In this document: positions 44,256-63,712 of the stretch, piece by piece
Position numbering within the stretch: position 1 is the first letter of the stretch
How the letters are laid out: each line of letters starts with the position of its first letter
Assembly: GCA_045803545.1 (NCBI GenBank)
Contig: JBJMOW010000004.1
Coordinates: 928,001-992,000 of the forward strand
Source of the DNA: Gemmatimonadaceae bacterium
GTDB lineage: Bacteria; Gemmatimonadota; Gemmatimonadetes; Gemmatimonadales; Gemmatimonadaceae
DNA: 64,000 bases
Direction: 5' to 3'
Translations under genes and position numbers: made by a program
The notes under the pieces: model-generated
The model's database searches: none
Told to the model about the DNA's origin: nothing
Seen by the model: the letters and a program-made list of their open reading frames with translations, nothing else

Positions 44256-44365
44256 AAGATATATTGAGTCATCTCTGGAGTAAAGGGGAACAACGACGCT
44301 TGCTGCTGCCTGCTTCGGCTAGCCGCCGAGCAGCTGGCTCAAAGCCCAGCGGCCAGCGCCGTTTG

Positions 44366-44521
44366 TTAATGCCTCGTTATCGCTTTTGACTCCTCGAGAT
44401 GCCTGTACTTCGCATTCGTCAGCAGCACGATCGAAGTCAGGATGAGGAATAGGGTCACCGCGCTGAGGATGAAGCCGGTGAGCGCAGCAGCGAGATCGGT
44501 TTTCTTTTTGATCGCCATCAT
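44366..44521 (-). CDS. Small single-TM protein (51 aa)
   Basis: ATGA overlap with the cyclophilin stop, [43 protein letters not shown]. Confidence 0.6.
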
Positions 44522-44997
44522 TTCGCTCCCGGCTCGCTCGCCACGCGTGCCTTCGACAGGGTGTCGTTCTGATTGATCTTCGGAATCACCTCGAGCCCTT
44601 CGACCACCCGCCCGAAAACTGTGTGCACCCCGTTCAGGTGTCGAGTGTTCGCCTCGCTGAGCACGATGAAGAACTGGCTGCCGCCGGTATCCTTGCCCGC
44701 GTGCGCCATCGATAGTGCGCCAACCTGATGCTTGTTCGGATTCCCGGACGTTTCGCATTTGATCTTGTAGCCAGGCCCACCGGTTCCAACCGGTCCTTTC
44801 GCCTCGGCGCCGCCTTTCGAGTACGGGTCGCCACCCTGCACCATGAAATCCTTGATCACACGGTGGAACTTCGTTCCGTCGTAAAATCCTGAGTTCGCCA
44901 GCTTCTCGAAATTGGCGACAGTATTCGGCGCGTCTTTCTCGAACAGCTCGGCGCGCATAGTTCCTTTGTTCGTTTCGATTGTGGCGATTTTCGTCAT
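44518..44997 (-). CDS. Cyclophilin-type peptidyl-prolyl isomerase
   Basis: [43 protein letters not shown]. Confidence 0.95.
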
Positions 44998-45032
44998 TAG
45001 TCGAGGAAGGGAATTGCTAAAACTAACACACA

Positions 45033-45090
45033 GATTGAGGCGTTCGGACCAACAGCCTGAACTGGCTGTTTTAGTCCGAACGCCTCAATC
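45033..45090. mobile_element. 58-bp palindromic mini-element, internally deleted derivative of the 62676-63300 cassette
   Basis: First 25 bp identical to 62676-62700; right part closely matches 63271-63300. Confidence 0.8.
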
Positions 45091-45754
45091 ATTTCCGCGC
45101 GGCGCGAAATCCGGCGGGTCGTTCCCGGCTCGCCTGGTCGAGCGCGCGACGCACGCCCGCCGCATCAAAGTCGGTCCCATACACCGGAGATCCCGGCTGC
45201 TGCTTCCATGACTCGTCGAGTCCGCCCGCGTCAACAGCGTCAAATCCCATCTCGTCGAGCAGCTTGATCACGACATCCTTGGCTTGCTTGTCGTCGCCGG
45301 CCACCGGCAACGCAATGCGTCCGGGCGTGCCACGTGGTTTACCGCGGTCCAGCAGATGCTTCGCGTAGATGTTGTTAAATGCTTTCACAACCGGTCGTCC
45401 GAGCTGCTGCGCTACCCACCGACTCTCGGTCGTTCCTGATTCGATGTCAGACAGGTAGCCGTCTCGCTGAGGGTAATAATTGCCGGTGTCGACTATCACT
45501 GCGGTTGCAGGTGTGTCAGCGAATAGATCGCGCGGCAACCTGGGGATGCTCTTCTCCGGAATGGTGACTATCACAACCTCACCCTTCCGCGCCGCTTCGC
45601 TCGGTGTCACCGCTTTGGCGCCAGTCTCGCGCGCGAGACCGTCCAGGGTCTCCGGACCACGAGAGTTCGCGACATAGACCTCGTGACCAAGCTGACTGAG
45701 ACGGCGAGTAAGATTGCCGCCAATGTGTCCGGCTCCGATGATTCCGATTCTCAT
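45089..45754 (-). CDS. NADPH-dependent F420 reductase-like / dinucleotide-binding oxidoreductase
   Basis: IGIIGAGHIGG, ANSRGPETL, VDTGNYYP.RD, VVKAFNN. Confidence 0.85.
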   Translation of the reverse strand: MRIGIIGAGHIGGNLTRRLSQLGHEVYVANSRGPETLDGLARETGAKAVTPSEAARKGEVVIVTIPEKSIPRLPRDLFADTPATAVIVDTGNYYPQRDGYLSDIESGTTESRWVAQQLGRPVVKAFNNIYAKHLLDRGKPRGTPGRIALPVAGDDKQAKDVVIKLLDEMGFDAVDAGGLDESWKQQPGSPVYGTDFDAAGVRRALDQASRERPAGFRAARK

Positions 45755-62675: not shown

Positions 62676-63300
62676 GATTGAGGCGTTCGGACCAACAGCC
62701 ATTCCGGAGTTCGGATTAATTGAGGGCCGAGGGGTAGACCCGCAATCGAAGGGTAGTTGGCACGCGCGAAAGGTTCTTGAACGCTTGGGCGACCACATAG
62801 CTTAGCGGCGTGAGTCATAAGCTATCGCCCGTGAGTGCAGATACTTCGAACGACCCGCTGCTCAGAATGCGAGCTTACACTCTTGGCCAGGAGTTACTCG
62901 ACGTGGCCTGGGTGGATGCAAAAACACTGAGTGGTGACGCGCTCACAGAACAGATTTCCGGACAACTTTACGCAGCAATCGCTTCGATTTCTGCGAACAT
63001 TGGCGAGGGATATTCTCGCAGTTCCGGCAAAGATCGTTCGAGAATATTTGAGTACGCGCTCGGCTCGGTTCGTGAAGCGATGGTCTGGTACCGAGCAGCG
63101 AAGCCAGTCATTGGGGAGGTTTCGACCGAACGACTCAACAAGTTGGAAGAGATTCGGCGCATGCTTCTGGTCATAATCCCGCGAGAACGCGGCAAGACTA
63201 TTCGTCCAAAGAATCGCCCGGGCTTAACTAACTAAAGTTAGATCCTCGCCCCTCAATTAATCCGAACTCCGAACTGGCCGTTGGTCCGAACGCCTCAATC
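62676..63300. mobile_element. Inverted-repeat-bounded cassette carrying a four-helix-bundle gene
   Basis: 57-bp arms at 62676-62732 and 63244-63300, 53/57 complementary. Confidence 0.8.
62810..63235 (+). CDS. Four-helix-bundle protein (23S rRNA intervening-sequence protein / Avd-like family)
   Basis: QLYAAIASISANIGEGYSRSSGKDRSRIFEYALGSVRE matches the family pattern QL.RA..SI..NIAEG..R....D...F...A.GS..E. Confidence 0.9.
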   Translation: MSHKLSPVSADTSNDPLLRMRAYTLGQELLDVAWVDAKTLSGDALTEQISGQLYAAIASISANIGEGYSRSSGKDRSRIFEYALGSVREAMVWYRAAKPVIGEVSTERLNKLEEIRRMLLVIIPRERGKTIRPKNRPGLTN

Positions 63301-63712
63301 AAAACTGTACCTGATAATCCTCCCCGCCAATTTCCCTCTGCGATCTGCCCGTCGTCCTCGATCTGCAATCAAACGACTGTACCAACGCCATCAAGCGCTG
63401 CCTCTCCAACGGCAAAACCAAATGCGCCAAAGTCGCCCGCTGCAGCTTCGGCGGCAGAAAGAGATGCTCTCCATGCGATTTTCCGTAGACGATCAACGCG
63501 GCGTTAGTAGTGAGGGGAAGCGATGCGGCCTGACCGGCTTCCGTTACCTCCTCACTCGATACGACTACAACCTCGGTTTCGTCCGCGCGCATCATAGCTG
63601 CCGCGTCCGGGAGCGTTGCCGCGAACTCGACATCGTGACCGCAGCCGAGCAGGGTTTGCGCTAAGCCCTCGAGCAGCGCGACGTCGGCGCCGACGAGTAT
63701 CACCTTACACAT
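63299..63712 (-). CDS. Degenerate receiver-like (CheY-fold) hypothetical protein
   Basis: VILVG.D.ALLEGL.Q.L...GHDV pattern; lacks the canonical Asp/Lys residues. Confidence 0.55.
   Translation of the reverse strand: MCKVILVGADVALLEGLAQTLLGCGHDVEFAATLPDAAAMMRADETEVVVVSSEEVTEAGQAASLPLTTNAALIVYGKSHGEHLFLPPKLQRATLAHLVLPLERQRLMALVQSFDCRSRTTGRSQREIGGEDYQVQF

Follow-up and report, generated by a model that had tools for sequence, protein, structure and literature searches.

The 58-bp hairpin at positions 45033-45090 is probably a copy, shortened from within, of a palindromic repeat of about 120 bp that is restricted to this lineage. The conserved 17-nt ends of that repeat also bound a cassette carrying a four-helix-bundle (4HB) protein gene. 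The copy was likely inherited in a gene-less state and then lost its centre. The window, meaning the whole stretch of 64,000 nucleotides analysed, corresponds to G000:C2:928001-992000, where G000 is the genome studied (3.7 Mb in 6 contigs, 93% complete, with no LSU rRNA in the assembly). It was compared with its closest relative G014, with G080 (86% complete) and G078 (72% complete), and with G005, G002, G024, and G010. Over both genes flanking 45033-45090, G014 and G000 share 77-85% DNA identity. The palindromic repeat family of this clade is herein called G-type and is defined by the terminal 17-mer GATTGAGGCGTTCGGAC in inverted orientation. X1 (a soil run), X3, and X4 (both from a second study) denote public DNA assemblies, and X7, X11, and X12 denote metatranscriptome contigs. 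The features of the two window elements are collected in Table 1.

Table 1. Coordinates of the 58-bp hairpin with its neighbours and of the gene-bearing cassette, in window positions
Feature	Positions	Strand	Basis or remark
Gene-less G-type member, 58 bp, probably apex-deleted	45033..45090		Exact end match, fold, orthologous 123-/143-bp copies in G014/G080
Left terminal 17-mer GATTGAGGCGTTCGGAC	45033..45049	+	Exact match
Putative remnant of the arms' interior: CAACAGCC, loop TGAACT, GGCTGTT + TTA bulge	45050..45073		Fold, arm alignment
Right terminal 17-mer, exact complement of the left	45074..45090	-	Contributes its final two bases to the TGA stop of the oxidoreductase-like ORF
Upstream neighbour: NADP/F420-type oxidoreductase-like ORF (PF03807)	45089..45754	-	Stop codon overlaps the element's end
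Downstream neighbour: cyclophilin-type peptidyl-prolyl isomerase (PF00160)	44518..44997	-	Start codon 35 nt past the hairpin
Gene-bearing G-type member, 625 bp	62676..63300		Ends are the 58-mer's ends; G014 has a cassette at the same site
Cassette left arm, 57 nt	62676..62732	+	93% complementary to the right arm
Cassette right arm, 57 nt	63244..63300	-	End overlaps the stop codon of the - strand ORF 63299-63712
4HB protein gene, 141 aa	62810..63235	+	PF05635, TIGR02436

A sequence-only reading of the window had described a 58-bp derivative lying 17.6 kb from the cassette and sharing 25 identical bp with 62676-62700, which is correct to the base. Positions 45033-45057 read GATTGAGGCGTTCGGACCAACAGCC, the same letters as 62676-62700, followed by a T at 45058; 45059-45090 (GAACTGGCTGTTTTAGTCCGAACGCCTCAATC) differs from GAACTGGCCGTTGGTCCGAACGCCTCAATC at 63271-63300 only by one C>T change and 2 nt of length. 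The two elements have the same orientation and lie 17,643 bases apart. Their outer 17 nt are perfect inverted repeats in both, and the ends of the 58-mer are identical to those of the cassette, so that the earlier statement of outer ends kept in the same orientation stands. The 17-mer occurs exactly four times in the window, at both ends of each of the two elements, compared with 0.37 occurrences expected from shuffles; 0 of 100 shuffles reach four. The predicted fold of the 58-mer is a stem of 17 + 7 pairs with -43.6 kcal/mol on the plus strand (z = -11.1) and -44.4 on the minus strand (z = -11.8), and 0 of 200 shuffles are as stable. An nhmmer profile of the arms matches both its arms, at profile positions 1-27 and 1-32 (E ~2e-5), the remainder of the arms beyond positions 27/32 being deleted. 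After loss of the centre, the left arm retains 25 nt and the right arm 32 nt, which still pair, and 45050-45073 would represent the junction left by that loss. ORF and family searches found no 4HB-family ORF in or beside the 58-mer.

An 861-nt contig of X1, which is possibly the genome's source sample, spans 44310-45170 with 0 differences; aligned on the full cassette, it shows the mini form as a 62700->63284 joint containing 16 intervening letters. The contigs of X3 and X4 end at 45049/45074 with loose ends that match other family copies. These breaks are repeat-induced fragmentation and uninformative on the length of the element in those samples; hence, the 58-bp form is confirmed in X1 only, possibly the source sample.

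The cassette ORF passes the family models PF05635 (40.4 bits; cut-off 33.8) and TIGR02436 (51.4 bits; cut-off 24; E = 1.1e-13), and the nearest solved chain to its product is 2gsc_A (E = 0.0045). We know of no catalytic activity of 4HB proteins; the 4HB "23S rRNA intervening-sequence proteins", a very large family, have to our knowledge no assigned function. At both window copies, the end of the element supplies part of a TGA. At the cassette's site, which follows metH, G014 also has G-type arms and a protein 86-87% identical to that of G000; G080 has a 4HB paralog that is only ~62-65% identical, with arms quite different. These G080 arms (L049, G080:C71, 1986-2668, compared with window 62676-63300) are built of GAGTCCGAG/GCGAGCT units, which recur as the inner part of G080's G-type copies of 249-253 bp and suggest that one hairpin family is nested inside another there.

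At the site of the 58-mer, between the same two genes, G014 has a 123-bp gene-less family member and G080 a 143-bp gene-less palindrome; the more distant G024 and G010, with the same gene order, have no copy there. Since both palindromes are gene-less, the 58-mer is read as an apex deletion of an inherited gene-less palindrome, and the element was most likely present, gene-less and full-length, before G000, G014, and G080 split, as judged from these orthologous copies. The symmetric loss of a palindrome's tip is a known product of hairpin processing or of slippage at long palindromes. C2:502894 is a second case in which a relative carries the longer structure at the shared site. The question raised earlier, of what relatives carry between the oxidoreductase and cyclophilin genes, thus receives a divided answer: gene-less forms in two, nothing in two, the full cassette in none. 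The proposed pair of a full-length and a miniature form of the same element holds for the shared family and ends; it does not hold for a direct collapse of the gene cassette into the 58-mer, G014 and G080 being gene-less at the site.

Genome-wide, the termini do define a dispersed family, as had been suggested, with 12 loci in G000 and many copies in three further genomes of the genus. The end motif has 12 exact occurrences in G000 and 18 with ≤1 mismatch. The count of copies that had been called for, classified as full and mini, gives one gene-bearing locus, five of 107-123 bp, one of 211 bp that contains a nested inner palindrome, three short ones (31, 44, and 58 bp), and two half copies. 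A typical member consists of two ~57-nt arms and a loop of 2-14 nt, that is, the cassette arms minus the interior. The short forms (31 and 44 bp in G000; 44 and 68 bp in relatives) likewise retain both ends, and gene-less copies of G000 and its relatives fall in tight size classes of 107-128, 140-151, and 249-253 bp. The inverted repeat often continues outward of the ends as GAG...CTC. With ORFs called only roughly, a stop codon lies ≤36 nt from 10 of the 12 G000 copies. One 123-bp copy, G000:C2:1016071-1016193, lies 24 kb past the window end, directly behind the stop of one gene of an operon and ahead of the next; in the same region, a heptamer-type hairpin lies ~20 nt ahead of a TTCGG-repeat operator. 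The 1081 bp between inverted G-type ends at L044 (G080:C231, 1486-2566) were considered as a second gene-bearing copy and rejected, as they hold an unrelated 253-aa ORF without a Pfam family.

The range of the family is narrow. Among 101 genomes of the genus, nine have any match with ≤1 mismatch and only four have several copies, with 18 ends in G000, 33 in G014, 20 in G080, and 6 in G078; a reversed-pattern control gave two matches in all of the genus genomes. A scan of one genome per species across bacteria and archaea found the exact 17-mer in 90 stretches. Among the 80 of these that were listed, 19 belong to two Gemmatimonadaceae records, the only multi-locus ones among the stretches listed, and 61 are single matches in unrelated taxa, close to the ~69 expected by chance for that amount of DNA by simple arithmetic.

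The flanks of 39 copies of the relatives (25 from G014 and 14 from G080) were mapped on G000, and both flanks were found for all; for 37 of the 39, the two are separated by no more than a few hundred bases. In G014 and/or G080, a G-type copy also stands at the site of seven of the 12 G000 loci (C2:502894, C2:973033, C2:990676, C4:92635, C4:1265254, C4:1332109, and C6:201291); the reverse comparison, from a G000 copy to its site in G014/G080, covered eight of the 12, all but C2:296560, C2:1016071, C4:693209, and C4:1175821. Presence/absence polymorphism, whose absence along with that of further copies had been named earlier as refuting, is found: six sites filled in G014 or G080 (L028, L035, L036, L038, L045, and L046) face a gap of 11-27 nt in G000, and a 689-bp cassette of G014 faces a clean 7-nt gap in G000, directly past a stop codon. 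Of the copies at these six sites, one follows closely on a bidirectional terminator. Neither the 39 copies in relatives nor the 12 in G000 show a visible target-site duplication; at a genome identity of ~80%, the exact insertion borders are unreadable. At other shared sites (L021, L022, and C2:228429 compared with G014), G000 has a different hairpin family; different families of hairpins apparently re-use gene ends. At G000:C2:228429-228459, a 31-bp G-type palindrome lies between convergent genes; G014 (L029, 2115-2270) has a ~155-bp hairpin of another family, the loop of which contains a terminator-like stem.

What is conserved in the repeats are the ends. Across six orthologous pairs, the terminal 17-mers are 92% identical (188/204), compared with 72% (519/720) for the adjacent 60-nt flanks and 52% (300/582) for the interiors of orthologous copies. 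A test for compensatory change, or for copying from one arm of an element to the other, was negative: over variable columns, the arms within one gene-less copy have a similarity of 0.574, the arms of different copies of the same genome one of 0.628 +/- 0.028, and 1966 of 2000 re-pairings lie at or above the observed value. As the arms of one copy are no more alike than those of different copies, interior pairing is not maintained. The ends, by these alignments, appear to be under constraint or homogenisation and the interior pairing not. In addition, the copies of one genome have certain letters in common that vary from genome to genome, orthologous sites included. At position 17, C is found in 12/12 arms of G000 and 14/14 of G080, and T in 11/16 of G014; the variable letter of GGA[T/C]TAA is T in 10/12 (G000) and 16/16 (G014) and C in 14/14 (G080). 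The gene-bearing copy of G014 carries the G014-type letter. Such genome-specific letters would result from conversion among the copies or else from turnover in which preferred sites are used again.

The G-type cassette is one of several 4HB cassettes. PF05635 has nine matches in G000, which make up eight loci, and all eight are bracketed by inverted repeats of 22-126 nt. The arm sequence differs at each locus, several arms consisting of heptamer-like units. The seven others are C4:457085-457690, C5:26994-27572, C4:382189-382772, C4:1517966-1518641, C6:61266-61864, C4:1539242-1539915, and C5:154260-155013; the gene at C6:61266-61864 is matched by the family model as two overlapping pieces, perhaps owing to a frameshift. 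Inverted arms surround 17 of the 19 4HB genes examined in G014, G080, and G078, the other two being at contig ends, and at least six of the eight arm families also have gene-less inverted pairs at other places in G000. The proteins of G080_C67 and G078_C192 are 87% identical and their arms similar, with different genomic sites; cassettes thus behave as units that move or are replaced.

At the site of G014:C74 (573 bp, with a gene), G000 (C4:669640-669716), G080, and G005 have gene-less heptamer hairpins. As G014 is the closest relative of G000, a single gain or replacement in G014 explains the pattern more simply than three losses would, and the gene-less state is probably the older one at this site, judging by its distribution. 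At G078:C192 (587 bp, with a gene), gene-less elements of ~230-250 bp are found in G000 (C2:201922-202151), G014, G080, G005, and G002, and either polarity is possible.

These sites bear on an unlikely alternative, that a full cassette once stood between the oxidoreductase and cyclophilin genes and lost its interior by direct collapse, gene-less palindromes being relics of separate cassette insertions. The ends of the 58-mer do match those of the gene cassette, and G014:C74 and G078:C192 are gene-bearing in one genome and gene-less in others. Cassettes also decay: 58 of the 101 genus genomes have relatives of the window 4HB protein, which are 49-69% identical to it (87% in G014), in-frame stops are present in 21 of 89 among the matches listed (one of the 21 in G085, an unpublished genome), and one G000 gene matches its model in the two pieces described above. 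However, all three genomes with an element at the 58-mer site are gene-less there. Moreover, tblastn with 25 proteins (E ≤ 0.01) found no 4HB coding remnant outside the eight G000 cassettes, and inside 11 longer gene-less copies, E ≤ 1 gave only chance matches of 7-32 residues. The tight size classes of gene-less copies also count against collapse, as does G014:C74, where the closest relative has the gene and G000, G080, and G005 are gene-less. Of the idea that REP-like palindromes can arise by collapse of 4HB cassettes, the decay of the genes is borne out; the absence of coding remnants, the uniform 107-128 bp, and the polarity at G014:C74 speak against the remainder. Cassette collapse would thus occur as gene decay, and by these comparisons it is shown neither as the source of the gene-less palindromes nor as the history of the 58-mer.

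The tie between repeat and gene appears loose: G080 and G078 keep G-type repeats, and no close copy of the G-type protein was found there (the best relative in G080 is 69% identical, and none was found in G078; both genomes are incomplete). Co-variation of proteins and arms was considered and set aside. The Mantel correlation is r = 0.42, reached by 0 of 2000 permutations, but it drops to 0.15 without pairs ≥60% identical; hence, the co-variation is mostly kinship. Arms may also enclose other genes. At G000:C4:1137714-1138408 (L182, 206-918), 112-nt arms that are 90% complementary belong to a family bracketing another 4HB gene, and they enclose a conserved, membrane-like, non-4HB ORF of 128 aa without a Pfam family. 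Its ortholog has arms in G080 too and none in G014, G002, or G005. The ORF is inverted in G000 compared with all four relatives, which shows that the arms recombine.

Under the favoured reading of the 58-mer as an apex-deleted, inherited palindrome, the gene-bearing cassette and its gene-less relatives would form one DNA-level element family. The family would spread or be homogenised via its conserved ends, by a route without a classical transposase; the 4HB cassette would be the usual full-length form, the gene-less copies would be non-autonomous members, and long palindromes would later shrink by loss of the hairpin tip. In an oxidoreductase-cyclophilin transcript, the 58-mer would be predicted to fold as a 24-pair stem directly behind the stop codon, which would at most be a 3' barrier or a weak stop. 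The Y1/RAYT transposase domain PF01797 (Y1_Tnp) was not found in G000 (93% complete), the control being positive in 6 of 14 reference genomes; neither were the reverse transcriptase PF00078 and the RNase III domains PF14622 and PF00636. PF14622 is present in only 1 of 41 order-sampled genomes, on a 1.5-kb contig, and tblastn with that single protein found nothing in G000. Because no Y1 transposase, reverse transcriptase, or RNase III was found, the route of the family's spread is one that we infer. More broadly, and only tentatively, 4HB (PF05635) genes could be the resident genes of undescribed, transposase-less, hairpin-armed DNA cassettes, whose conserved ends drive the spread or in-place conversion of gene-less minis, as REPINs depend on RAYTs; the 58-mer would then be one worn-out member. 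Counting against the favoured explanation are that no enzyme was found for the spread, the loose tie of repeat and gene, the similar arms around the non-4HB gene at C4:1137714-1138408, the interior pairing that is not maintained, the lack of visible target-site duplications, genome-specific letters that turnover could produce as well as conversion, and the confirmation of the 58-bp form in X1 only.

It is rather improbable that the hairpin is an RNA element selected by the host for its use in the transcript, whether as a terminator, as a 3' stabiliser, or, in the manner of the 23S rRNA intervening sequence (IVS), as an RNase III cut site, with spread being secondary. Consistent with such a role, the stem is very stable, it stands directly behind a stop codon as do 10 of the 12 copies, it is retained at its site in three species, and it is followed on the transcribed strand by a moderately T-rich tail, TGTGTGTT. 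Nonetheless, a scan for the terminator consensus (a G+C-rich stem, then a T run) found nothing at 45033-45090 on either strand. No Rfam family was found for the 58-mer, two sub-threshold matches to miRNA models (E = 0.18 and 0.93) being taken as chance. Further arguments against an RNA role are the RNase III domains not found in G000 and PF14622 in 1/41 order genomes, the arm interior that is poorly conserved and without compensation, and the unrelated hairpin families that occupy the same intergenic sites in different genomes. The RNA contig of X7 covers 44778-45009 only, and the metatranscriptome contigs of X7, X11, and X12 give no cover over the hairpin or the 4HB gene. In an oxidoreductase-cyclophilin transcript, the 58-mer would be predicted to fold as a 24-pair stem directly behind the stop codon, which would at most be a 3' barrier or a weak stop.

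The comparison with the 23S rRNA IVS is instructive in its own right. ORF-less IVSs exist in other bacteria. The long terminal stem around an ORF (57-nt arms, 93% complementary) and a mini form without the ORF are IVS features seen here too. In ORF-bearing IVSs (PMC4990558), a PF05635-family ORF likewise lies in the loop of a long terminal-inverted-repeat stem, and sporadic distribution suggests mobility. The same text describes the helix-45 IVS of Coxiella burnetii with S23p, cites Ralph and McClelland 1993 for an ORF serving mobility, and treats the mode of IVS movement as an open question since the 1990s (PMC4990558). Unlike the 23S rRNA IVS, both window elements lie between protein-coding ORFs and not in an rRNA helix (9, 25, or 45), many gene-less copies have the same ends, and no RNase III gene was found in this lineage. 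IVS-style excision by RNase III is therefore unlikely here. The lineage may lack RNase III, and long hairpins in transcripts could then be tolerable; a literature search on RNase III in Gemmatimonadetes found nothing specific.

Highly doubtful, finally, is that the repeat is just a REPIN or MITE of the ordinary kind, which a RAYT (Y1) transposase or an insertion sequence sharing its inverted ends would mobilise, the 4HB gene being a bystander. The likeness to REPIN/RAYT systems (Bertels and Rainey 2011, PMC3116915) comprises hairpin-forming inverted doublets that are extragenic, dispersed, and over-represented, one resident gene flanked by the repeat at a 'master' locus as RAYT genes are, and a genome-specific population. 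That arms can enclose non-4HB genes also fits a bystander. Unlike in REPIN/RAYT systems, no Y1/RAYT gene was found (PF01797 in the 93% complete G000) and the flanked gene encodes a 4HB protein; unlike in REPINs, the arms are ~57 nt or longer and made of short units, and the repeat persists where no close gene copy was found. MITEs are short, gene-less elements with conserved terminal inverted repeats, which are often found at gene ends and are able to supply stop codons. G-type repeats resemble them in being short and gene-less, with conserved inverted ends, at gene ends and as part of a stop codon. Unlike for MITEs, arm searches of G000 found no parent insertion sequence with a transposase, and no target-site duplication was seen, as far as the diverged empty sites can show; in the arm searches, the only longer DNA bounded by both ends was the 4HB cassette. 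As all eight 4HB genes are bracketed by eight different arm sequences, chance capture is no explanation.

A fourth system to compare are the paired inverted heptamer-repeat arrays of Xanthomonas, which are intergenic, lie mostly ≤50 bp from stops or starts, and can form stem-loops as convergent pairs (Rehm et al. 2015, PMC4692102). Rehm et al. 2015 read the arrays as G-quadruplex repeats, and 4HB genes go unmentioned there, with 0 occurrences of 'helix bundle' or 'intervening sequence' (PMC4692102). G-type repeats resemble these arrays in being intergenic and near stops, and other arm families of G000 are heptamer arrays; unlike them, G-type arms are not simple tandem heptamers. Hence, for IVS, REPIN/RAYT, MITE, and heptamer arrays, defining features of each fail here. 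No literature linking PF05635/TIGR02436/S23p genes to dispersed gene-less palindromes was found in a search whose coverage excludes subscription journals.

A chance palindrome or an assembly artefact has a negligible probability: contigs of two runs of another study do break inside the element, but 0 of 100 shuffles reach the observed 17-mer count, the X1 contig spans the element with 0 differences, and family members at the orthologous spot in two other species show that the 58-mer is no artefact, which answers the doubt attached to the first description.

The 58-mer itself is an ordinary relic, likely a decayed non-autonomous offshoot of the cassette family and not a working switch; it is probably mostly inert and of no consequence to the cell. 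Its value is that of a dated member of an experimentally tractable family. The clade offers a compact comparable system, with one gene-bearing and about a dozen or more gene-less copies per genome that have the same ends, with sites that are filled, empty, or replaced between species, and with genome-specific letters. As there is apparently no RNase III, Y1 transposase, or reverse transcriptase, the possible mechanisms are narrowed to a DNA-level process on the conserved ends. The 17-mer, the 120-bp mini, and the cassette are concrete substrates for binding and mobility assays.
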